Origin: Thermoflexus hugenholtzii JAD2
GTDB taxonomy: Bacteria; Chloroflexota; Anaerolineae; J036; Brachytrichaceae
DNA: 36,367 bases
Direction: 5' to 3'
Assembly (NCBI GenBank): GCA_945877855.1
Contig: CAMDWA010000028.1
Span: forward strand, 1-36,367
Positions within the stretch are counted from its first letter, which is position 1. Each line of letters opens with the position of its first letter. Below are positions 4,479 through 30,135 of the stretch, piece after piece. The notes below the pieces were generated by a model. It saw nothing but the letters and a program-made list of their open reading frames with translations. It made no database searches and was not told where the DNA came from. The position numbers and the translations under genes are program-made.

Positions 4479-4502
4479 AGCGGGCGATATTACCAGAAAG
4501 TG

Positions 4503-4625
4503 GGGAGCCGTGAGCCATGAGCTTTGAGCTTTGAGCCTTGAGCCTTGAGCTATGAGTCACAAGTCACGGCTCATGGCTCATGGCTCATAGCTCATGGCTC
4601 CAAAGCTCATGCCTCACGGCTCAAA
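4503..4625. repeat. Quasi-palindromic heptamer array (TGAGCNN x7, then its complement NNGCTCA x8) in the divergent promoter region
   Basis: Left arm tgagcca/tgagctt/tgagctt/tgagcct/tgagcct/tgagcta; the right arm is the complementary set cggctca/tggctca/tggctca/tagctca and so on. It sits between the GT gene start (4478, minus) and the CMD start (4642, plus). Confidence 0.75.
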
Positions 4626-8801: not shown

Positions 8802-8985
8802 CTGTTTGTCGCAAGGCTGTTCAAAAGTCAGCACGCTACTTAACCCGTCATCTCCGCGAACGCGGAGATCCATAACGTGTCATGGCAAAATTGCGGAAAA
8901 CCAGTCAACCTATGCCTGTCTGGTTATAGATTCCAGCTTTCGCGGGAATGACGAGGCGACTTTTGAACAGCCTTGCTGTTTGTCG
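8802..8985. mobile_element. MITE-like non-autonomous element (164 bp) with 18-bp perfect terminal inverted repeats and a 10-bp target-site duplication
   Basis: TIR-L caaggctgttcaaaagtc (8812-8829) is the exact reverse complement of TIR-R gacttttgaacagccttg (8958-8975). Both are flanked by the direct repeat ctgtttgtcg (8802-8811 and 8976-8985). There is an internal 9-bp-stem hairpin atctccgcg-aa-cgcggagat. No transposase ORF is present. Confidence 0.7.
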
Positions 8986-9040
8986 AGCGCAGCTTGACAA
9001 GCGAATTATTGTTATTGGCAAAGGTATCATACTCAGCCTG

Positions 9041-10012
9041 ATGTCTAATGCAACCAACCTAACACTACGCGCCTATCGTGGTCTTGTCGATCATCCCGCG
9101 ATGATCTCACTTACGAATGCCTGCCACCAACACGAAGGGGTAGAAGAATTTGAAACGGCAGAAAGTCTGCAACATTTTTTACATTTTCCGCACAGCGATC
9201 CTGAGTATGACATCATTGTCGCCGAAAATGCTGAGGGGATCATCGGTTATGCCCATACCTTTTGGCGAAAAAATCGCGATAACAGTATCGTGCATTATGT
9301 TTTTGTCTTTGTCCATCCCGATCAACAACGCCAAGGCGTGGGCACAAGGTTATTCGCCCAACTCCAACACCGCATTGCGGCGCTGACACAACAAACCGAA
9401 CCCAACAGCCCCCATCTATTACTCACTTATGTGCAAGAAAAAGAAGCGGCAGCCCAAGCCTTTGTAAACAAACACGGTTTTGGCGTTGCACGCTATTTAT
9501 ATGAGATGGTATGCCCGCTTGAACATTTGCCAAATTGTGATGATTACCCATTACCTGCCCATATTGAATTGCGACCAGCCTTGCCAGCCCATGACCGCGC
9601 CATTTACAATGCCCGCCGCGAAGCCTTTCTCGATCATTGGGGGTCGGCGCTACCCAGCGAAGAAGAATTTCAGGCATGGATAAACGATGAACAGCGCGAC
9701 CCAAGTAGGTATGTGATTGCCTGGGCCAATGACCAAGTGGCGGGCATGGTGCTCAATGAAATTAACCACAGTGAAAATGAAGCCAGTGGGCGCAAACGCG
9801 GCTATACCGACCCAATTGCGGTGCGGCGGCCTTGGCGCAAACAAGGCTTGGCAACGGCCATGCTGGTGCGCAGTTTGCACCTATTGCGTCAACATGGCAT
9901 GAGTGAGGCTGCACTGAGCGTTGACACCGAAAACCCGAGTGGGGCATTACGAATTTATGAACGCTTGGGGTTTAAAGCGGTAAAAAAGATCGTCGCTTAT
10001 CAAAAACTGTAA
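9041..10012 (+). CDS. Tandem-GNAT N-acetyltransferase, MshD (mycothiol synthase)-like architecture
   Basis: Two GNAT acetyl-CoA binding cores: VFVHPDQQRQGVGTRLF and IAVRRPWRKQGLATAMLVRSL...RLGF. The track ORF (8948) extends upstream into the MITE, so the start was set at MSNATNL; the start is uncertain. Confidence 0.6.
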   Translation: MSNATNLTLRAYRGLVDHPAMISLTNACHQHEGVEEFETAESLQHFLHFPHSDPEYDIIVAENAEGIIGYAHTFWRKNRDNSIVHYVFVFVHPDQQRQGVGTRLFAQLQHRIAALTQQTEPNSPHLLLTYVQEKEAAAQAFVNKHGFGVARYLYEMVCPLEHLPNCDDYPLPAHIELRPALPAHDRAIYNARREAFLDHWGSALPSEEEFQAWINDEQRDPSRYVIAWANDQVAGMVLNEINHSENEASGRKRGYTDPIAVRRPWRKQGLATAMLVRSLHLLRQHGMSEAALSVDTENPSGALRIYERLGFKAVKKIVAYQKL

Positions 10013-10015
10013 TAT

Positions 10016-10075
10016 GCCGATTTCACTATCTCCCTCCCATAGCTACGCTGTGGGAGGGAGATAGTGAAATCGGCC
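10016..10075. repeat. REP-like palindromic hairpin element (family 1, full copy) 3' of the GNAT gene
   Basis: gccgatttcac-tatctccctcccatagc-tacg-ctgtgggagggagata-gtgaaatcggc, a perfect hairpin. Confidence 0.8.
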
Positions 10076-10288
10076 CTTCATCTTTATCGGAATTTGCTTT
10101 ATTTAAACAAAAAACGCGAGTGTTTACTCGCGTTTTTTGTTTATCTGCCAGCCCTAGCAGCTATCTAGGCGATGCAATGTGACAGGTCTTTTGCCTTAGG
10201 TCTTAATCCCCCTATTCTCTCTATCTTTATCAAGGTGATAGCGGTCGGGATATCTCTTATGCTCACATGCATTCGAGGGATATATAAA

Positions 10289-11188
10289 ATGCCAAAGTCT
10301 CTACTCACTGCAATTATCACTGTCTTCATCATGCTGGTCGGGCCAAGCATTGCCAAAGCCACCCCACCCACCCCCATTAGCTCATTGGCAGGCTGGAACG
10401 CTGAATATTGGGACAATGCCGAGCAAAATGGCGAACCCATTCTCAGCCGCATGGATGGGGCAATTAATTTTAATTGGGGCAACGCTGCCCCCAACAGTGA
10501 GTTGCCAAGCGATCATTTCTCGGTGCGTTGGTTGCAAACCATCAGTGTGCCAGCCGGTCGCTATCGTTTTACGCTCTATGCCGATGATGGCATTCGTATC
10601 TTTGTCAATCATAAGCTGGTGCTAAACCGCTGGGACAACCAAGGCTATCAAGTCCATTCGGTAACGGTAGACCTTGAAGGTGGTGGTGACTTGGTGCGCA
10701 TTGACTATGTTGATCGTGGTGGCAGTGCCCGTGTGCAACTCAAGGCCCAACGCATTACCCTTGCGGCTACGGCTGCCCCACAACGTGAATTGCGCCCAGT
10801 CAGCAAAAGCAACAACCGCCCCTGGGAAATTGCATTTTTTAACAATACCGAACTGAAGGGCGAACCGATTCACACCCTGCAAGCCACCAATGCCAATTTT
10901 GATTGGGGCAAATCGAAGCCCAAATTGGTAACGCAAAACGGTTTCTCGGTGCGCATGACCAAGCGTGAATATTTGGGGGCTGGTAATTATCGCTTTATCG
11001 TGGCCGCCGATGATGGCATTCGCATGTTCGTAGATGGCAAATTGGTAGTGAATGACTGGCAACCCGCCCGCAACCATATTTCACGCAGCACTGGGCTAGC
11101 GCTCGACACTGGCTTTCATGAGATCGTGGTCGAATATTTCAATCAAGGCAGCAGCTCACAACTTAATGTGACGTGGGAATTGTCATAA
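10289..11188 (+). CDS. Secreted protein with two tandem PA14 domains
   Basis: Signal peptide (MPKSLLTAIITVFIMLVGPSIAKA), then two repeats of the PA14 pattern (GW/WE..F.N..L.GEP...DFNWG...FSVRW...G.YRF...ADDG.R.FV...LV.N.W). The track ORF starts further upstream, at 10172. Confidence 0.75.
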   Translation: MPKSLLTAIITVFIMLVGPSIAKATPPTPISSLAGWNAEYWDNAEQNGEPILSRMDGAINFNWGNAAPNSELPSDHFSVRWLQTISVPAGRYRFTLYADDGIRIFVNHKLVLNRWDNQGYQVHSVTVDLEGGGDLVRIDYVDRGGSARVQLKAQRITLAATAAPQRELRPVSKSNNRPWEIAFFNNTELKGEPIHTLQATNANFDWGKSKPKLVTQNGFSVRMTKREYLGAGNYRFIVAADDGIRMFVDGKLVVNDWQPARNHISRSTGLALDTGFHEIVVEYFNQGSSSQLNVTWELS

Positions 11189-11211
11189 AAAACCATCGTT
11201 GGCGGCGTGCC

Positions 11212-12774
11212 TTACGCCGTCTTCAATATTTCATCAGCGGCTTTTACACCCGACAAATACGCCCCATGCACCGTGCCAAAATATTGGCGGCTAGCCGCCT
11301 CACCCGCAAAATACAGCACATCGTCTAGCGATTTTGCCAAATGGTCGCGCATTTCGGGAACCGCGCCAACTGGGTTAAATGAATAGGAGCCACCCGCAAA
11401 AGGGTCTGAACTCCAACGGGTAATTTGATAATCGATCGGGTCAGGGGTGTTGCGCCCGAAGATAGTGCGCAGGGTTTGCATGGCGCTGGCGACGATCTTC
11501 TCATCGCTCAAAGCCTCAATCGATTGCCCGATATTGGCGGCGTTAAACCCCAGCAAAATGGGCAAACCAGTCGGGCGGGCAAAACTCACCCACTCCACCC
11601 ATTCGCCAGCGTTGGGGGCCACATATTCCATCCAATCGTATTTGGCTTGCCAAAATACCTTGGGGAAGCGCAAATAGCACTTGTTCAACACGCCCATTTT
11701 TAGCGCCTCGATGGCCTTTTGTTTTTGGGCAGGCAAGGCGGGCTTAAACATCACGGCACTGCGTTTCAGCACCCCCAGCGGCAAAGTGACAAGCACCTTC
11801 TCGGCCACATAAGTCGCGCTGTCAGTCGTAACACTTACACGATCTTTTGCCGTTTTCCATTCAATCTGACGCACTGGGCTGTTGGTTTTAATATCAAGCC
11901 CTTGCGCCAAATACCCTGCAATAGCCCCATAACCAGCCAAAAAGAGCGCGTCATCGCCCTTAAACGCCGCATCATCGTCATACCAATGCGCCGACAATTC
12001 GCCAATGCTGCCAGCGTATTCTTGCTCAAACTTGCCATTGAGAATAAAACTAACCAGCTGCTGCTCTTCGAGTGACAGTTTGGCCCAATTGAGCGCTTTT
12101 TCGATGACGGTCTGAATCGACTGGTCGTCATCACGTTTTTGGGCCGCCTTCAGAGCTTGGGTAATGGCTTTATCTAGCCGTTCAATTTGCGCCTCTTGCG
12201 CATCGCTCAAAACTTGACCTTGTGACCCATACCCAATTGTGCTCTCATAATATGTGGTCGCCATTTTTGCACCCACCGTCTGAGCCAAGGTCATAATCGG
12301 GTTGCCATCCACTCCGTGAATCCACGACGCGCCCAAATCCATTGGCGCATCGGGCCACTTGTTGCTCGTCCACAACCGCCCGCCAATGCGATCACGTGCC
12401 TCTAACACCAGCGGCTTGATGCCACGCTGGGACAATCTTTGCGCAGCCGCCAACCCCGCCATGCCTGCACCAATAACAATGACGCGCTGAAAGGCAGCAG
12501 TGACAGCCTGAGCCACAACAATTGGCAAGCAAATTACAGCGGAAGTAGTTTTGTCGCGCTGAGAGTCGGCGGTAACAGCCTGAGCCGCAACCGCAGTCGG
12601 CACGGGGGGCAGTGTGGGATTAGATGGTGGCGACAAAGCAGGTGGTGGCACAGGTGTCGCGTTGACCGGGGCTGAGATATCAGCAGTAGGGGCATAGGAA
12701 GGTAAAGTGCTTGTGGAGGCGCTCAAACCTACCACTGTCGCCCCCAGCCATTGCAAAAAATGTCGTCTGTGCAT
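11212..12774 (-). CDS. Tat-exported flavin-containing amine oxidase (MAO/polyamine oxidase family)
   Basis: Twin-arginine motif RRHFLQW at the N-terminus, a Pro/Ala-rich linker, then the FAD-binding fold VIVIGAGMAGLAAA...LEARDRIGGR and the C-terminal amine-oxidase motif YFAGEAAS...GAYLSG. Confidence 0.75.
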   Translation of the reverse strand: MHRRHFLQWLGATVVGLSASTSTLPSYAPTADISAPVNATPVPPPALSPPSNPTLPPVPTAVAAQAVTADSQRDKTTSAVICLPIVVAQAVTAAFQRVIVIGAGMAGLAAAQRLSQRGIKPLVLEARDRIGGRLWTSNKWPDAPMDLGASWIHGVDGNPIMTLAQTVGAKMATTYYESTIGYGSQGQVLSDAQEAQIERLDKAITQALKAAQKRDDDQSIQTVIEKALNWAKLSLEEQQLVSFILNGKFEQEYAGSIGELSAHWYDDDAAFKGDDALFLAGYGAIAGYLAQGLDIKTNSPVRQIEWKTAKDRVSVTTDSATYVAEKVLVTLPLGVLKRSAVMFKPALPAQKQKAIEALKMGVLNKCYLRFPKVFWQAKYDWMEYVAPNAGEWVEWVSFARPTGLPILLGFNAANIGQSIEALSDEKIVASAMQTLRTIFGRNTPDPIDYQITRWSSDPFAGGSYSFNPVGAVPEMRDHLAKSLDDVLYFAGEAASRQYFGTVHGAYLSGVKAADEILKTA

Positions 12775-13784
12775 TCTAATCCAAACTCTAACGTCGAATG
12801 ACGATAAAGCTTGATTATATTCAGATCAAGTTGTAATAAGATTGTTGCCTCATTTTTACCTACATACTCTAACACCGACAGCACATAGCAAATGCTTTCA
12901 GGCCGTGCATTCTTCTTGTTGTTGTCCCGCACAACAATCCAAGGCCTAAACGAGGTATAGACCTTGCTAAACATCAATTCTTTACATTTGGTATACGAAT
13001 CCCAAAATGCTTGGCTTTTGGCATCCATTAGGCTAATTTTCCATTGTTTCAATGGGTTATCAGCCCGTGAATCAAAACGTCATTTTTGCTCCTCTTTCGA
13101 GATCAAAAACCAAAATTTGATCAGCGTGACACTGTCTTCATACAACCTATGCTTATATTCGGTCACTTGGCGAATAAATTGCTCATATTGTTCGGGTGCG
13201 CAAAAGCCATTGACCGACTCGACGACAGCGCGGTTATACCAACTGCGGTCAAAAAACACAATCTCACCGCAATTTGGCAATTGGCACGTGTAACGCTGAA
13301 AATACCATTGCCCCACTTCTTCTTCGGTCGGCTTGGGCCAAGCCACCACTCGCAAGGCACGCGGGTTCATATGCTCGGTAAAGCGGCGAATGGCCCCGCC
13401 CTTACCGGCGGCATCGCGGCCCTCGAACAAAATCGCCACACGCCGTTTTTTCTCTTGCACCCAGCGTTGCAGTTTCACCAATTCGATCTGTAGCTTTTGC
13501 AATTCGTTCTCATAATTGAGCAACTCGACAATTTTTTGCGGGTTAATCTCCTTCGACTGCAGCAAACTAAACAGATCACGCGGCGACTGCACGCTGATCA
13601 AATCTTTGTAGGTTAGAAATGGCGCATCGGGGTTACTGGGCGGCGTCATGGGCAAGGCTGGCGGCACTTTTGGGGGCAACTTGGCGGCTGCGGGTTTGGG
13701 CGCAGCTTTTTTGCGGCGCTTTGGCTTGTCGCTGTTCGGGTTGTTGTTTGGGTCGCTGGGGGATGGAAGTGAAGCTTGAGACAT
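12729..13784 (-). pseudogene. ppk2: Polyphosphate kinase 2 (PPK2) interrupted by a single in-frame TGA
   Basis: Upstream ORF (to 13080) has the PPK2 Walker A FEGRDAAGKGG and ...FWFLISKEEQK. A TGA at 13080-13082 is followed in the same frame by RFDSRADNPLKQWKISLMDAKSQAFWDSYTK...PWIVVRDNNKKNARPE, the conserved PPK2 C-terminus. Start taken at MSQASL (13784). The ORF is otherwise intact. Confidence 0.65.
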
Positions 13785-13869
13785 AAGAATGTGTGGGATA
13801 AAACAAAATAAAAACACCTCGTGCAAAAATCACACGCCGTAGACAGCATATTCTGCCCTTGTTCATCAC

Positions 13870-14840
13870 TCACCCCCCTGATGGGTAGCACGGCACTGGC
13901 TTGTTGGATAGTGCACAACAACCTCACAAGACCAGTCCGCGTTGACGCAAATGCAGCACTCACCCTGCTATCAATTGAGGCGGTGGGCGCGTTTGTCTGG
14001 CTTGCTTGCGCGGCTCGTGCGGGGGCAGATGCCCAGCAACTGACAGTTGCTGGGCATCTACTCACCCTTAATTGATGGCAAACGTAACACTCACCACGCC
14101 ATCAATTGAGGCAGTGATGGGGTTAGTCTGGCGTGCTTGCGCGGCTCATGCGGGTGCAGATGCACCGCACCTCGCAGGTGCGGCGCATCTACTCACCCCA
14201 CGTTGGTGGCAAATGCAACGCTCACCCCGCCCTCAATTGAGGCAGTGATGGGGTTAGTCTGGCTTGCTTGCGCGGCTCGTCCGGATGCAGATGCACCGCA
14301 CCTCGCAGGTGCGGCGCATCTACTCACCCTTAAATTGATGGCAATGCAACGCTTACCCCGCCCTCAATTGAGGCAGTGGGCGCGGTCATTTGGCTTGCTT
14401 GCGCGGCTCGTGCGGGGGCAGATGCCCAGCAACTGACAGTTGCTGGGCATCTACTCACCCTTAATTGATGGCAAACGTAACACTAACCCCGCCATCAATT
14501 GAGGCAGTGACGGGGTTAGTCTAGCTTGCTTGCGCGGCTCATGCGGGTGCAGATGCGCCGCACCTGCGAGGTGCGGCGCATCTACTCACCCTTAAATTGG
14601 TGGCAAATGTAACACTCACCCTGCCCTCAATTGAGGCGGTGACGGGGTTAGTCTGGCGTGCTTGCGCGGCTCGTGCAGGTGCAGATGCCCAGCAACTGGC
14701 AGTTGCTGGGCATCTACTCACCCTTAAATTGATGGCAAATGCAACGCTCACCCCACCCTCAATTAAGGCGGTGGGCGCGGTCGTTTGGCTGGCTTGCGCG
14801 GATCGTGCGGGTGCAGATGCGCCGCACCTGCGAAGGGCGA
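13870..14840. repeat. Tandem array of about 7.4 units of ~131 bp (130-133 bp), each with two conserved hairpins and two alternating variants
   Basis: Unit starts (motif caattgagg) at 13971, 14104, 14234, 14365, 14496, 14628 and 14760. Variant A hairpin is gatgcccagcaactg-aca-cagttgctgggcatc; variant B hairpin is gatgcgccgcacct-gcg-aggtgcggcgcatc. A second hairpin, aattgatggc...gcc(a/c)tcaatt, spans the unit junctions. Confidence 0.85.
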
Positions 14841-17839: not shown

Positions 17840-17847
17840 GGCGTGAG

Positions 17848-17872
17848 ATTATAGCAAGATGAGCAATGTCAA
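17848..17872 (-). promoter_or_regulatory. Consensus -35 TTGACA and -10 TATAAT hexamers (13-nt spacer) 8 nt upstream of the NACHT gene ATG
   Basis: Minus strand reads ttgaca-ttgctcatcttgc-tataat-ctcacgcc-ATG. The hexamers are perfect but the spacer is short, which would make the gene near-leaderless. Confidence 0.3.
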
Positions 17873-17882
17873 TCGCCCAAGG

Positions 17883-18272
17883 TTAAACGACTAAACGACC
17901 TTTTTGTCCATCAATAGTCAACACACGCTCTGCTATTAAATCCATACCTATCAACCCCTCCACACCTAAATTATCAGGCACAATATTTTGAGCAAGCACT
18001 GAAAATGAGGTTAGCACTAAACCCATTGTTTCAAAGCGTTGAATGGGTAATTCATAGGCTCTCAACCGCCCACCAATTCCAGACAATATCACAGTTCGTG
18101 TGCCCATTTGAGCACTGTAACCCAGCAAATCTAAAATTGCAACGTCTATGATTGATTGCGGCGAGCCAGTATCAAGAATACAGTCCAAGTAACGATCGCC
18201 ACGTGGGCCAAAAATATGGACCGTTACCCAAATAATGCCTTCAGTAAGATCGTAATCACAAGTCCACATCAT
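17883..18272 (-). CDS. Retropepsin-like (clan AA) aspartic protease
   Basis: 129 aa with the catalytic LDTGS motif and a downstream GMDLI flap-like motif, a size typical of a single-domain bacterial retropepsin. Lower local GC. Overlaps the upstream small ORF by 17 nt. Confidence 0.65.
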   Translation of the reverse strand: MMWTCDYDLTEGIIWVTVHIFGPRGDRYLDCILDTGSPQSIIDVAILDLLGYSAQMGTRTVILSGIGGRLRAYELPIQRFETMGLVLTSFSVLAQNIVPDNLGVEGLIGMDLIAERVLTIDGQKGRLVV

Positions 18273-18507
18273 TATTAATCGTCGTAAATAGGGACAATCC
18301 GTGCTTTTTACCCGTCCACAAAATCGCTGCTGACTTCAGGTCTCTTTGCTTCTCAAGAACCCGCGCATGATTTGTATCATGGGCAAAAACCACACCTCGA
18401 CTAATTTCGCCCATATTGGGCCATTCAACCTCGATCAACACCACCCACTGATTCGGGTATTGCTGTTTAATTTCGGGCCAAGTTAATAAATTTTGCTGTT
18501 TTTCCAT
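18256..18507 (-). CDS. Small hypothetical protein (83 aa) translationally coupled to the retropepsin gene
   Basis: Start set at MEKQQNLL (ATG 18507), preceded by a strong SD GGAGG 6 nt upstream. The longer track ORF (to 18567) would overlap the uvrB start. Function unknown. Confidence 0.5.
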
Positions 18508-18538
18508 CGCATCCTCCCCCTCTCCAAAGTATAATATC

Positions 18539-18552
18539 GAACATAAGTTCGA
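18539..18552. promoter_or_regulatory. LexA (SOS) box of the Cheo/Gram-positive type, CGAACATAAGTTCG
   Basis: Matches CGAAC-N4-GTTCG, and matches the B. subtilis consensus CGAACRNRYGTTCG at 13 of 14 positions. Overlaps a TATAAT at 18530-18535. Ends 2 nt before the uvrB ATG and lies 32 nt upstream of the divergent small-ORF start. Confidence 0.7.
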
Positions 18553-18553
18553 T

Positions 18554-20722
18554 ATGTCAGAGTTCAAAGTCCACTCCCCTTTTCAGCCAATGGGCGACCA
18601 ACCGACCGCCATCGACGATATGGTCAAAAGCCTGAATGCAGGCAATCGCTACACCACCTTGCTCGGTGCAACCGGCACTGGCAAGACGTTTTCGGTGGCA
18701 AAAGTGATCGAGCGGGTGCAACGCCCGGCGCTGATTATGGCGCACAACAAGACCTTGGCGGCCCAACTCTATGCCGAGTTCAAAGAATTTTTCCCCGACA
18801 ACGCGGTGGAGTATTTCGTCAGTTATTACGATTATTACCAACCCGAAGCCTATGTGCCGCGTCACGACCTGTATATCGAGAAAGAATCGACCATCAATGA
18901 CGAACTTGATCGGCTGCGGCTAGCCGCCACCAGTTCGTTACTCAGTCGGCGCGATGTCATCATCGTGGCCTCGGTGTCGTGTATTTACGGCATCGGCAAC
19001 CCCGAAGATTATGGGCGCTATGTGGTCAAGCTGCACAAAGGCGAGGTGCGCCGCCGCGATATCGTGCTGCGTATGCTCATCGCCATTCAGTATGAGCGCA
19101 ACGACATCGCTTTTGCCCGCGGCAAATTTCGCGTGCGGGGCGACACGCTCGACATTTACCCAGCCTATGCCGATACCGCCTATCGGGTCGAGTTTTTTGG
19201 CGACGAGGTCGAGCGCATCGCCGAGTTTCATCCGGTCACTGGCGAAATTATCGACGATGTCGAAGCGATCGAGATTTTTCCCGCCAAACACTTCATCACG
19301 CCCCAAGACAAACTAAAGAAGGCCATTACCGAAATCGAAGCCGAGCTTGAAGAACGGGTGGCGTGGTTTAAGTCCCACGACAAACTGTTGGAGGCCCAAC
19401 GCATCGAACAACGAGTGCGTTATGACGTGGCGATGTTGCGCGAGGTTGGGCACACCACTGGTATCGAAAATTATTCGCGCATCTTAGATGGTCGCCCGAC
19501 CGGCTTCCCGCCCTTCACCCTGCTCGATTATTTCCCCGACGATTTTGTACTGATTGTGGATGAAAGCCACAACAGCTTGCCACAAATTCGCGGCATGTAT
19601 GCCGGCGACCAAGCCCGCAAGGGCGTATTGGTCGATTATGGCTTTCGTTTGCCCAGCGCAATGGATAACCGCCCGCTTAAGTTTGATGAATTTGAAACCC
19701 GTTTTCGGCAAGCCATTTTTGTCAGCGCCACCCCCGGGCCATTTGAAAAAGAAAAAAGCCAATTGGTGGCCGAGCAAGTCATTCGCCCGACCGGCCTGAT
19801 CGACCCCGTGATCGAAGTAAAACCGGTCAAAGGGCAAGTCGATGATCTCATCGCCCAAATTCGCGCCACCGTTGCCAAAAAACAACGGGTGCTGGTGACC
19901 ACGCTCACCAAACGCATGGCCGAAGACCTGACCAATTATTTGCAAGAAATTAATATCAAGGTGCAATATTTGCACAGCGAGGTCGAGACGGTCGAGCGGG
20001 TCGAGATTTTGCGCGACTTGCGCTTGGGTGAATATGACGTGGTGGTCGGCATTAACCTGTTGCGCGAAGGCTTAGACCTGCCCGAAGTGTCGCTGGTGGC
20101 GATTTTGGATGCCGATAAAGAAGGCTTTTTGCGCAGCACCACCTCGCTCATTCAAACTGTGGGCCGCGCCGCACGGCATGTCGATGGACGGGCGATTATG
20201 TATGCCGACAAAATGACCGACTCGATGAAAAATGCCATCGACGAAACCAATCGGCGACGCATCAAACAGGTGGCTTACAACACGGCGCATGACATCCAGC
20301 CAGCTTCGATCAAAAAATCGGTACGCGACCTGACCGACCGGGTGCGGGCCGATGACGATGCCCAAGAAGCGCTACCCGAAGGCGAATATCGATCCCCCGG
20401 CGCTGAGTTTCGCCGCGCCGCCCAAGCCTTGCGTGAAACCGCTGGCAAACGGGTGTCTGATATGCCAAAAGAAGCCGCGCAACAACTGATGGCCGATTTA
20501 GAGGCGCAAATGAAGCAAGCCGCCAAAGACCTCGAATTTGAAAAGGCCGCTGCCCTGCGTGATCAAATCATGGAACTGCGCCAACGGGTGCTGGGTGTAG
20601 ACCCAAATGCCCCAGCTTGGGAGCAAGCCCGCAAAGGGATTGACGTAGAAGATAAATCGCCCGCCCAAAAGTCGAAGGGCGATGTGCAATATAAACCCAA
20701 ACGGGTGGGTCGAGGGCGTTAA
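18554..20722 (+). CDS. uvrB: Excinuclease ABC subunit B
   Basis: 722 aa; N-terminus [22 protein letters not shown] aligns with UvrB. Has Walker A GATGTGKT, helicase motifs, and a C-terminal UVR domain ([18 protein letters not shown]) followed by a basic tail. Confidence 0.95.
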
Positions 20723-20805
20723 TCATCCGATCGATAACCAACGGCCTTCACAACCAATTTTCGCAAAAACGTATAAGGATCAAAATGATAAAAAAATTAT
20801 CCTGT

Positions 20806-20868
20806 CCATCCTGCCTATCCATGTGCATAACCCTATAAAACATGGATAGGCAGGATGGGCAAGATAAG
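20806..20868. terminator. 18-bp perfect inverted repeat (ccatcctgcctatccatg / catggataggcaggatgg) with a 27-nt loop between convergent uvrB and the NuoN-like gene
   Basis: Read directly. The loop is unusually long for an intrinsic terminator, so this could instead be a protein-binding palindrome or a mini-element. Confidence 0.4.
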
Positions 20869-20891
20869 AACCTTACACAAAAAGTGCAAAA

Positions 20892-22541
20892 TTAGCGATA
20901 AAAGCTAAATAGGCGGCTCAATGAAGCCGCCATTGTGGTGAAAATAACGGGCGACATGCCAAAATAAAAAATAGCCAGCGAGATGATCACCGGCAAAGAA
21001 ATGGCTAACGGCGCAATACGCTCAGCCAAGGTTTCAGCCACATTAACCTGCGGTTGAGGCTCAACCACAGGTTGAGGCTCATTCAAAGCACCCATTTCAT
21101 TCGCTGCTAAAGGCATTTCTTGCGATAGCACTTCGGTCATTGGCATGGCCTCGGTTGGCATCGCTTCAAAAGCGCTCGGCGCAGGGGCATTGAGCGCCGC
21201 CACTTCGTTGATGGGCGGTTTGGCCACATCAGCAGGGTTGGCAGATTGGGCTTGCGGGGTAGATTTGGGTTTTTCTGAGATCAATGCCGACACACCGCGC
21301 AAAAAACCAATGCCAACACTGGCAAACGCCACCAACAAGCCAACCGCCAATTCGGTATCGGTGCTAGCAATGGTACGCGCTTGCACCCAACGGGTGACAA
21401 AGCCAATGCTGCCCGGCAAACCGCTCAGCGACATGCCCCCGGCACAAATCGCCAACGCCGCCAACCGTGCGCTGGTTCCGGTGCGGGCTGCGCCCATCAA
21501 CTCAGCAAAATCATCATCACGGGCTTTGCCGCGCAAAATGGCTAACCCAATCGCCACCGCCCCCAACGACAACGTCAGCGAAACCACATTTAACGCCACC
21601 GCCTCGACCGACTGATGCACATGTTGATTAAGCATGAGCAAATTTGCCCCAATATCGACACTCAGGGCGCTGGCGATTAAACGGCTAAACGACATTTGTG
21701 CCCATGCCAACGCCCCACCGACCACAATCATGATCAAACTAACCGCAACAATATAGGTATTGCCATCTAAATTACGAAACCATGACAACTCTTGTTTAAG
21801 CGCCAAATAAAAAAATGAGATCGTGCCGCTACAGACCGTAGCAATAAAGGCCGTCGTTAAGGGTGGAGCATCATTTGCCACCAAATGCGTCCACGTAAAC
21901 AAGGGGAAAGCCCCCAACAACAATACAAATCCGCCGCCCAAAAAGATGCTAGCGTTGTCAAACAGCACTGCAGCGGCCTCTTCGGTCAGGCCGCTGGCAT
22001 TGGCCTGATTAAAATAATAACCAGCCCCTAAAAATGCAGGCAAGGCGAGGGTGCTTAAAATCAAATAACGCATCGCGCCATGCGTGCTACGTTCGCCAAT
22101 ATGCTCAGCTTGAATCATGATGGCGACTAAGGCCGCCGCAATGACAAACAACAAGCCGCTATAGGCAAAGGGGCGAATCATCAACCCCGCGCTCATGATA
22201 GACAACACACAGAGCCCCAATGGAATAAATGTGCGGCCTTGCGAAGTGCGCCACGACAACGCAAATAAGATCATGGCACATAAAAATATCATCGAAAGTG
22301 CAATTTGATCGTAAGCATGCATCCGCAGCGTAACGCCCAAAAATTCGATGGGGCGGCCTAAATCGAGTGTGCCGATCAACAAATTATTGCTGCGGTCGTA
22401 AGGCAACAGCAGCACCCCGACAACCAAGCCACAGGCCAACAGGCCCATTAAAACCTCGAGGCTGCGCCGTTGCCGAAAAACATAGGCGGGCAACGCCGTT
22501 AATAATGGCAAAAGGAGCACAAGAATCGAACCGGAAATCAT
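20892..22541 (-). CDS. NuoN/NuoM/MnhD-like proton-antiporter-family membrane protein with a low-complexity C-terminal tail
   Basis: Multi-TM protein; the middle region (FPLFTWTHLVANDAPPLTTAFIATV) resembles the Proton_antipo_M fold. Its ~140-aa P/E/A-rich tail ends in a final TM helix. No other complex I genes are adjacent. Confidence 0.45.
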   Translation of the reverse strand: MISGSILVLLLPLLTALPAYVFRQRRSLEVLMGLLACGLVVGVLLLPYDRSNNLLIGTLDLGRPIEFLGVTLRMHAYDQIALSMIFLCAMILFALSWRTSQGRTFIPLGLCVLSIMSAGLMIRPFAYSGLLFVIAAALVAIMIQAEHIGERSTHGAMRYLILSTLALPAFLGAGYYFNQANASGLTEEAAAVLFDNASIFLGGGFVLLLGAFPLFTWTHLVANDAPPLTTAFIATVCSGTISFFYLALKQELSWFRNLDGNTYIVAVSLIMIVVGGALAWAQMSFSRLIASALSVDIGANLLMLNQHVHQSVEAVALNVVSLTLSLGAVAIGLAILRGKARDDDFAELMGAARTGTSARLAALAICAGGMSLSGLPGSIGFVTRWVQARTIASTDTELAVGLLVAFASVGIGFLRGVSALISEKPKSTPQAQSANPADVAKPPINEVAALNAPAPSAFEAMPTEAMPMTEVLSQEMPLAANEMGALNEPQPVVEPQPQVNVAETLAERIAPLAISLPVIISLAIFYFGMSPVIFTTMAASLSRLFSFYR

Positions 22542-23194
22542 AAAACGAGCGGCTCGCTATCGGCAAGCGTAAGATAAGCGATGGCAATCCCCACAATTAA
22601 CGAAATTAAACCGATCATGACGCTAACCCCGACGTTGGGCAATACCGCAATATAACCCAATTCGACCCCCGAAATAAACATGAGCAACCCAATGCCAATA
22701 TTCAGCGCTTCAGGGGTGGTTGCAATAATAAATAGGCCACAGGCAATTAATACATAAGCGGCAAAATGCAATTCGCGGGCATTGCCCGGCAATGGGAAAC
22801 GGGTGGTAGCCCCGAAGGCCGCTGTTAAGACCAATAACAATGCCACCGCCCGCAACAATACTTGGGCTGGCACACTACGCCATGCCACCATGCGAATGCG
22901 TTCAACGGCGATCGATTCACCGCGTTGGGCACGCATATCATCGGCGCGTTGGGCCGCGATGCTAAGCGCAAATGACACCAAGGCCCCCGAAATAAGTTTG
23001 ATCAGCGCCAAGCTGGGTTGAATCGAGCGGGCCATTAGCAACCCCACTAAAACATATTGTGCAATTAAAATGGGCAGTGTAAGCCGCCAGTTTCGCACAA
23101 GCACAATACCAGTAGCGCTGGCAACCAGCGACAGCAATAATGGCGTAATCGCCAAGCGCGATAACTGCTCGATCAGTGCGATCACATCATTCAT
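22538..23194 (-). CDS. Hypothetical polytopic membrane protein, stop/start coupled (ATGA) to the NuoN-like gene
   Basis: 218 aa with about 6 hydrophobic helices. No recognisable motif. Confidence 0.45.
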   Translation of the reverse strand: MNDVIALIEQLSRLAITPLLLSLVASATGIVLVRNWRLTLPILIAQYVLVGLLMARSIQPSLALIKLISGALVSFALSIAAQRADDMRAQRGESIAVERIRMVAWRSVPAQVLLRAVALLLVLTAAFGATTRFPLPGNARELHFAAYVLIACGLFIIATTPEALNIGIGLLMFISGVELGYIAVLPNVGVSVMIGLISLIVGIAIAYLTLADSEPLVL

Positions 23195-23371
23195 GTTGTA
23201 AGATGATTATAAGTCATGTGGCATTTCAGTCATGCGAGGATAAACGAGGGTTTGACGATTATTAAAAGATAGACCAAGCAAGAGAAAAATCGGCGCAAAT
23301 CGCATTTTTATACCTATCTTAGTATAAAAGCTGTGATACTTTTGCGATTGCCACGTATATTTATTTAGAAC

Positions 23372-25998: not shown

Positions 25999-26078
25999 TG
26001 ATTAATGGTCAATGATTAATGGTTAATGATTAATGGTTAATGATTAATGATTAATGATTAATGATTAATGATTAATGG
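25995..26078. repeat. Heptanucleotide microsatellite TTAATGR x12 spanning the ABC ATPase stop codon and the permease start codon
   Basis: Units counted directly as ttaatga, ttaatgg, tcaatga, ttaatgg, ttaatga, ttaatgg, ttaatga x5, ttaatgg. The ATPase TAA (25996-98) is in unit 1 and the candidate permease ATG (26068) is in unit 11. Confidence 0.85.
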
Positions 26079-30046: not shown

Positions 30047-30135
30047 TTGAATGACAAACCATCATTTTTCGCTGCGCCAAACGGCACAACTTCACATAAA
30101 TTCATAACCGCTGACATCGCGTTTACAATACATTT

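Follow-up and report, generated by a model that had tools for sequence, protein, structure and literature searches.

Can the operator of a DNA-repair gene bring a divergent, defence-like gene cluster under SOS control? The question is raised by a 36,367-nt stretch of DNA (hereafter the window: contig CAMDWA010000028.1, positions 1 to 36,367, of assembly GCA_945877855.1, listed under Thermoflexus hugenholtzii JAD2), in which a short palindrome lies between uvrB and three genes on the opposite strand: a small open reading frame (ORF), a retropepsin-like aspartic protease and a NACHT-domain STAND NTPase. A reading made from the letters of the window (the sequence-only reading) had taken the palindrome for a LexA box, the three genes for one operon, and the operon for a candidate DNA-damage-inducible defence module. 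We find good support for the first of these propositions: the palindrome is predicted to be an ordinary LexA (SOS) operator of the Cheo type, serving uvrB in a lineage of uncultured Anaerolineae. Its control may extend to the small ORF and the retropepsin; the NACHT gene appears to stand apart from it.

The palindrome, CGAACATAAGTTCG, is identical to CGAAC-N4-GTTCG at all ten specified bases and to CGAACATATGTTCG at 13 of 14 positions. It sits within a longer perfect inverted repeat whose right arm takes in the AT of the uvrB ATG, and the ATG (18554) begins 2 nt past the end of the box. The exact 14-mer is present in one copy in the window, where 0.04 are expected, and a match to it was held by 4 of 100 shuffled windows. 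The 8-base GAAC/GTTC core by itself is expected 0.34 times per window and is hence not significant there: the significance of the box comes from its position and from its conservation in orthologous promoters. The N-terminus of the uvrB protein aligns with those of its relatives from residue 1. The identical protein is present on several metagenome contigs, and the closest uvrB proteins among species-representative genomes come from Chloroflexota metagenome-assembled genomes (MAGs; 76% identity for the top match and 74% for the second, a Thermoflexales MAG), with many further Anaerolineae proteins at 60-66%.

Conservation was assessed in the 120 nt upstream of uvrB in 80 related loci, with the expectation taken from the remainder of those loci (compared loci are labeled by L-numbers: L002, L084, L182 and so on). 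A perfect GAAC-N4-GTTC core was found upstream of uvrB in 21 of the 80 (0.23 expected) and a core with at most one mismatch in 33 (3.1 expected); the 14-mer version of the same test gave 16 loci against approximately 1. These boxes nearly always abut a TATAAT-like -10: the arrangement seen in the window – TATAAT, 0-3 nt, box – recurs in L019, L024, L027 and L047, the box lies just downstream of the -10 also in L071, and it is joined to the upstream side of the -10 in L004, L005, L016, L018 and L036. Away from uvrB promoters, four perfect cores lie 27-30 nt before a long ORF, which in each case is uvrA (L050, L076, L082 and L083). Within the close lineage TATAAT and the 14-mer are invariant in all sampled sublineages that retain the region, while the 19 nt next to the start of the small ORF and the 2-nt flanks of the box differ between sublineages. 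Distant uvrB relatives keep the half-sites GAAC and GTTC only, the spacer and flanks being free to vary, which is the signature of the operator of a dimeric protein and not of a stem. The LexA motif of Chloroflexi is described in PMC4951493 (citing Fernandez de Henestrosa 2002, Dehalococcoides study) as variations of GAAC-N4-GTTC.

The box thus resembles the Cheo box/LexA operator of Firmicutes, Actinobacteria and Chloroflexi in its 14-bp palindrome, its CGAAC and GTTCG half-sites and its 4-nt spacer; like known cases it extends into the predicted core promoter of a central SOS gene, and it is conserved here at orthologous uvrB and uvrA promoters. There is no difference in kind: what the window provides is a new, predicted instance from an uncultured Anaerolineae lineage.

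A perfect inverted repeat at a start codon might also be the operator of some other dimeric regulator, or an RNA or DNA hairpin, either masking the start codon of uvrB or exerting an effect on the leader of the minus-strand transcript. Folded as RNA, the 9-bp stem reaches -11.7 kcal/mol (z -3.9 relative to shuffled controls) and includes the AT of the ATG, and the scan marks the palindrome as terminator-like on the minus strand; the uvrB messenger, however, would be unable to form the stem, since a TATAAT located 2 nt upstream of the box puts the predicted uvrB start inside the left arm. The joint change of both outer flanks in the L084 lineage would suit a hairpin, but the stem extension is lost in L092 (flank cc), distant relatives conserve the half-sites only, the same motif is found at uvrA, and the palindrome has no Rfam match. 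We regard a non-LexA regulator or a hairpin as highly improbable, and a role as a terminator or riboswitch-like RNA was rejected as the main function on the basis of scan, Rfam and folding. As to the flanks themselves (18536-18537 and 18552-18553), at..at is replaced on both sides by gt..ac in L084-L091 (L084 5945-5975) and the 9+9 palindrome stays perfect; this paired change fits either a symmetric protein site under selection or palindrome-templated mutation. In L092 the flanks are at..cc and the 9+9 palindrome is broken.

On the LexA reading, the mode of action at uvrB would be simple. The box begins 2 nt downstream of TATAAT – adjacent to it, with no overlap – and with a predicted start at approximately 18542 the operator spans about -4 to +10. 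A LexA dimer on CGAAC-N4-GTTCG would lie across the predicted start and block RNA polymerase; DNA damage, through RecA-stimulated self-cleavage of LexA, would free the promoter and induce uvrB. Most of what the sequence-only reading had said of this region stands: the 13-of-14 consensus match, the end of the box 2 nt before the uvrB ATG, the 46-nt intergenic region and the GGAGG of the small ORF are all borne out, and the assignment of the box to uvrB as a LexA operator is supported by the orthologous promoters, the uvrA boxes and the Chloroflexi motif literature. The box itself exists, one base to the left of where it had been placed (18538-18551, not 18539-18552); it does not overlap the TATAAT (18530-18535), which ends 2 nt upstream; and its distance from the small ORF is 30 nt, not 32.

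Table. Features of the uvrB-divergent region and of its variable neighborhood, in window coordinates.
Feature	Positions	Strand	Basis or remark
Predicted LexA (SOS) operator, GAAC-N4-GTTC/Cheo-box class, CGAACATAAGTTCG	18538-18551	none	sequence and conservation
Perfect 9+9 inverted repeat around the box, ATATCGAAC-ataa-GTTCGATAT	18534-18555 (arms 18534-18542, 18547-18555)	none	
uvrB, 722 amino acids (aa)	18554-20722	+	Pfam UvrB domains; the gene that the operator belongs to
-10 TATAAT, inferred uvrB promoter	18530-18535	+	consensus sequence; layout shared with related uvrB loci
-10-like TATTAT	18531-18536	-	promoter scan; predicted start ~18524, 18 bp from the plus-strand start
-35-like CTGACA	18555-18560	-	inside uvrB codons 1-3; 18 nt from TATTAT
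Shine-Dalgarno GGAGG of the small ORF	18513-18517	-	5 nt before its ATG
Small ORF, 83 aa	18256-18507	-	family of ~75-100 aa, distantly DUF5678-related; weak PDC-M08A match
Retropepsin-like aspartic protease, 129 aa	17883-18272	-	Pfam PF13650 (Asp_protease_2), E 2.8e-8; DTGS, GIGG and LIGMD motifs
Extended -10 TGcTATAAT of the NACHT gene	17848-17856	-	8 nt before the ATG, no Shine-Dalgarno; leaderless-type start
EAD7-NACHT-FGE-sulfatase STAND NTPase, 956 aa	14969-17839	-	Pfam; variably present neighbor
131-nt tandem repeat, 6.7 copies	13947-14830	none	between the NACHT stop and PPK2; lineage-variable segment

Whether the operator also serves the opposite direction depends on where the small ORF is transcribed from. 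The intergenic region between uvrB and the small ORF measures 46 nt, with 30 nt separating the box from the ATG at which the small ORF begins (18507, minus strand). Because the small ORF has a strong Shine-Dalgarno sequence, it needs a leadered mRNA that starts inside or beyond these 46 nt. The promoter scan offers such a start: on the minus strand CTGACA-18 nt-TATTAT scores 10 of 12 matches, higher than the plus-strand promoter, and a transcript from approximately 18524 would give the small ORF a 17-nt leader containing GGAGG. The operator occupies the spacer of this promoter-like site (about -14 to -27). The plus-strand TATAAT and its minus-strand counterpart TATTAT are reciprocally arranged, the -11A of either strand standing opposite the -7T of the other. 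According to the summary of Warman et al. (2021) in PMC10268837, this reciprocal -11A/-7T arrangement, with divergent starts 18 bp apart, is a common layout of bidirectional promoters; the cases described there are mainly from Escherichia and Salmonella, not from Chloroflexota. The window shares the symmetric -10, with starts that are predicted, and differs further in that one repressor operator would serve both directions.

The near-symmetric -10 would therefore probably fire leftward too, by way of TATTAT and CTGACA, and with the operator in the leftward spacer the small ORF and the translationally coupled retropepsin would probably be co-repressed by LexA. Any alternative promoter supplying a leader to the small ORF would lie under or upstream of the approximately 30-bp footprint of a LexA dimer, so that occlusion or a roadblock would be hard to avoid. 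We consider co-repression of the pair plausible on this sequence evidence, with the chances about evenly balanced; that the pair actually responds to SOS induction through the symmetric bidirectional -10 of the uvrB operator is a more tentative proposal, and one we would not expect to hold. One further difference touches the -35-like hexamer: codon 2 of uvrB (18557-18559) reads TCA (Ser) here, whereas most of the relatives compared have CCN (Pro), and the substitution alters the complementary strand from CTGGCA to CTGACA, a better -35-like hexamer.

The two leftward genes form a unit of their own. They overlap by 17 nt, and the combination recurs: among 80 metagenome loci of small-ORF relatives, at least 45 have the small ORF followed directly, in the same direction, by a retropepsin-like ORF, and many of the others end at a contig edge. 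(The locus search used a narrower alignment, A2; the first, A1, was too diverse.) From the sequences, small ORF and retropepsin are a conserved two-gene module. The small ORF itself has no match in Pfam or NCBIfam and only three close relatives in the word-indexed database; a full HMMER scan returned 96 cluster representatives, mostly 75-100 aa long, sharing a motif of approximately LTWxEIKxxYPDEWVxLVD...GVVxAH...WTG, and two of 41 family members match DUF5678 weakly. Its AlphaFold2 model (predicted local distance difference test 80) gave no match with E < 1 when compared with the PDB by Foldseek, and so no assignment of fold or DNA binding. Among longer relatives one (P0023, 230 aa) carries a fused N-terminal DUF5615/PIN_10 (PIN-like) domain, and in several others the small domain is duplicated in tandem. 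The PIN-like fusion hints that the small domain may be an antitoxin-like partner of toxin-type enzymes. A programmed, gag-pro-like frameshift joining the small ORF to the protease was considered and rejected: the long relatives are duplications or the PIN-like fusion, and none is a protease fusion. Also rejected was a general linkage of the module to uvrB or NACHT, given that no uvrB was detected in the 80 homologous loci and that their only 'NACHT' match is a lone FGE-sulfatase domain.

PADLOC assigns the retropepsin to PDC-M08B (E 1.1e-10, residues 30-124 aligned with 27-120 of a 127-residue profile) and matches the small protein weakly to PDC-M08A (E 3.7e-4, 18 residues, 9-26, only). In the L084 lineage (L084-L091) the retropepsin is a pseudogene (L084 6236-6625, corresponding to 17883-18272 of the window): codon 3 is changed from TGG to TGA, and a 3-nt deletion and insertions of 6 and 5 nt are present, the reading frame being shifted. 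The small ORF of the same lineage is intact (96% identity). Retention of the partner after loss of the enzyme recalls, by analogy, the remnants of toxin-antitoxin systems.

Does the unit extend into the NACHT gene? The three genes could be one operon read from the 46-nt region, with LexA making the entire cluster, STAND NTPase included, inducible by damage. They lie on one strand, the first two overlapping by 17 nt and the third following after 43 nt, with no terminator detected in between, and the same gene order is found in a second sublineage (L179-L181); in L182 the NACHT gene is again on the minus strand, approximately 150 nt from the box. The genes do not, however, travel together, every partial combination being seen in sister lineages. 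Five states of the locus are distinguished: the pair with NACHT (the window and L179-L181, 96.4% nucleotide identity over 6 kb); the pair without NACHT, next to an intact PPK2 (L092/L093); the small ORF with a dead protease and without NACHT (L084-L091); NACHT without the pair (L182); and the small ORF disrupted at codon 4 by an insertion sequence (IS; L002). The idea that NACHT is a strain-specific insertion was revised in view of L179-L181, which carry all three genes, and of L182, which carries NACHT without the pair. In L182 the order is uvrB start, box, TATTATACTTTG, a highly structured 120-nt spacer and then NACHT, so that the box is parted from the gene by a structured element. This spacer (196-315) forms three nested or adjacent hairpins with CCCATACC repeats (predicted free energy -72.5 kcal/mol, z -6.2); it could be an element resembling repetitive extragenic palindromes or miniature inverted-repeat transposable elements, or it could insulate NACHT from the uvrB-divergent promoter.

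The NACHT gene, moreover, brings its own promoter-like sequence. In all three NACHT contexts at the locus (window, L179 and L182) TGcTATAAT stands 7-8 nt before the ATG, which lacks a Shine-Dalgarno sequence; the motif is unchanged in L182 although the sequence further upstream differs, and a 57% homologue at an unrelated locus (L183) has TATAAT 6 nt before its ATG. The protein comprises EAD7 (residues 10-71), NACHT (153-283) and FGE-sulfatase (630-944) domains. Its NACHT-FGE core is widespread, with homologues elsewhere standing alone, and the N-terminus is swapped among EAD8, TIR, trypsin-like, SIR2 and other domains: exchanged N-termini of this kind are typical of stand-alone STAND conflict genes. 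A phmmer search with the EAD7 region found no second EAD7 protein among the ORFs of the window, and thus no EAD7 partner ties NACHT to the pair. The extended -10 of NACHT-FGE would accordingly give the gene a leaderless-type mRNA of its own, outside any designed SOS operon, and we judge the three-gene operon improbable. The identities that the sequence-only reading had assigned (uvrB, retropepsin, NACHT-FGE) agree with Pfam, and the overlap, the gap and the 956-aa length are as it had given them; the operon it had drawn is not supported, relatives failing to keep the genes together and NACHT having a -10 of its own. Damage induction of the STAND NTPase finds no support, the gene being separable, equipped with its own -10, lacking a Shine-Dalgarno sequence and belonging to a stand-alone family.

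The position of a -10 beside the ATG is seen elsewhere. Within the window a TATAAT-like hexamer stands 6-11 nt before an ATG without Shine-Dalgarno sequence at 4479-4486 (a PMT_2-like gene), 23195-23205 (a 218-aa gene), 30129-30135 (DUF2177) and 17840-17853 (NACHT), and in the nearest relatives (L004, L005 and L016) uvrB, too, has a -10 beside its ATG. Given this recurrence, mRNAs with a very short leader or none may well be common in the lineage.

Taken as a whole, the explanation we prefer – an operator that belongs to uvrB, a pair that is perhaps co-repressed by it, and a NACHT gene that is independent – seems to us fairly probable. A number of results count against it. No lexA was found by phmmer with B. 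subtilis LexA among the ORFs of the window and of all fetched loci, nor was lexA or any other SOS gene found in 10 kb more of the source contig (L174); the presence of LexA in the genome is for this reason taken from the clade. All promoters were assigned by consensus match, with starts that are predicted, and the promoter scan found no good -35 for uvrB. In the 250 nt upstream of 80 homologous modules there are seven one-mismatch cores (7.1 expected) and no perfect core. On the NACHT side, no terminator was detected between the pair and the gene, so that some read-through is possible, and NACHT lies on the minus strand downstream of the operator in three of the five sampled sublineages. A read-through transcript would be poorly translated, since the internal NACHT ATG has no Shine-Dalgarno sequence, and we consider it very unlikely that NACHT is included in an SOS-responsive unit by this route. 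The extra 10 kb contains one further GAAC-N4-GTTC (L174 1988-1999), inside a called permease gene (1760-2713). A database search with the B. subtilis LexA query returned Bacillus LexA only and is uninformative on the promoter of lexA in Anaerolineae.

The lack of box enrichment at homologous modules implies that SOS control of the pair, if real, is incidental – a consequence of position and no trait of the family – and it also lends itself to a simpler account, in which the operator serves uvrB alone, the pair is constitutive or controlled in its own way from a LexA-insensitive start, and adjacency is without regulatory effect. The nearest homologues of the pair outside the lineage have neither a box nor uvrB as a neighbor. 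The module is dispensable (the protease is a pseudogene in L084, the pair is deleted in L182, and an IS interrupts the small ORF in L002), and the -35-like hexamer, bound as it is by the coding constraint of uvrB, could be fortuitous. This account must nevertheless contend with a minus-strand site that at 10 of 12 matches beats the plus-strand site, and with the geometry of the region: any promoter that yields a GGAGG leader falls within or upstream of the approximately 30 bp that LexA would cover. We regard control of uvrB alone as rather unlikely.

The interruption in L002 was seen in L002 1-1680, where the IS joins at the equivalent of approximately 18497 while uvrB and the box are identical to those of the window; its transposase (a weak Dimer_Tnp_Tn5 match) reads toward uvrB, and the contig ends within the IS.

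Small accessory modules under LexA are familiar from E. coli, where the toxin-antitoxin-like modules tisB/istR, symE, dinJ-yafQ and yafNO are SOS-regulated. The pair would likewise be a small two-component accessory module behind a LexA box; those modules have LexA boxes of their own, whereas here the box is that of uvrB and would be shared, and their toxins are membrane proteins or RNases, whereas here the candidate toxin-like component is an aspartic protease. The NACHT gene has a different set of relatives, the EAD-NACHT or bacterial NACHT (STAND) conflict systems reportedly described by Kaur, Burroughs, Iyer and Aravind in 2020 and in work on bNACHT defence: it has the same N-terminal EAD, NACHT and C-terminal sensor-type domain (FGE-sulfatase here), but the window holds no EAD7-bearing effector partner and PADLOC gave no hit for the gene. 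For the pair the closest counterpart is PDC-M08, a two-gene phage-defence candidate proposed through guilt-by-embedding (Payne et al., preprint 10.1101/2024.01.29.577857); PDC systems are candidates whose prediction is based on genes located within BREX, DISARM or type I restriction-modification (RM) loci. Gene order and tight coupling are the same, and the protease matches the B component (approximately 127 aa) over nearly its full length. The A component is likewise upstream, at approximately 86 aa, and the small-ORF match to it spans 18 residues only; the pair lies beside uvrB and not inside BREX, DISARM or RM systems.

The comparison of loci indicates that uncultured Anaerolineae, too, use a LexA motif of the Gram-positive type and place uvrB and uvrA under SOS control, a result that is expected and of modest value. 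More useful is a negative finding: SOS induction of the STAND NTPase does not hold up, because NACHT is a separable cassette with a leaderless-type promoter of its own. What remains is a candidate case of one operator for both arms of a symmetric promoter, with a repair gene on one side and a candidate defence or toxin-like retropepsin pair on the other. Were this arrangement to operate as proposed, DNA damage or phage-triggered activation of RecA would switch on a bacterial retropepsin, possibly an abortive or defence device gated by damage; the NACHT-FGE STAND gene might be induced to some degree as well, through read-through. That the retropepsin serves in DNA-damage tolerance or repair, by analogy with the eukaryotic retropepsin-type protease Ddi1, is a speculation to which we attach very little probability.

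The variable segment has further traces of turnover. Compared with L084, the window is 99.3% identical on the PPK2/amine-oxidase side (8948-13684) and 94.5% identical on the uvrB side (17851-23289): unequal identity on either side of the variable segment points to recombination, and to the locus as a small hotspot of accessory-gene turnover. The 131-nt tandem repeat (83% matches, a period that is no multiple of 3, no Rfam match) has a unit that folds into a 17-bp hairpin (minus strand, predicted free energy -65 kcal/mol, z -4.6), and the L084 lineage has a single copy of that unit (L084 6668-6815). In L092 PPK2 is one 330-aa gene; both the window (12729-13826) and the L084 lineage have it as two ORFs, one matching profile positions 6-150 and the next 161-226. 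A frameshift pseudogene, or else an assembly or sequence change common to both, is the probable explanation. Finally, 7-nt tandem repeats take up three intergenic regions of the window, at 1371-1430 (GGGGTGT/GGGGTAT), 4479-4593 (GCTCAAA/GCTCATG) and 26008-26075 (GATTAAT/GGTTAAT), the last of which extends into the annotated start of an ABC-2 permease gene.

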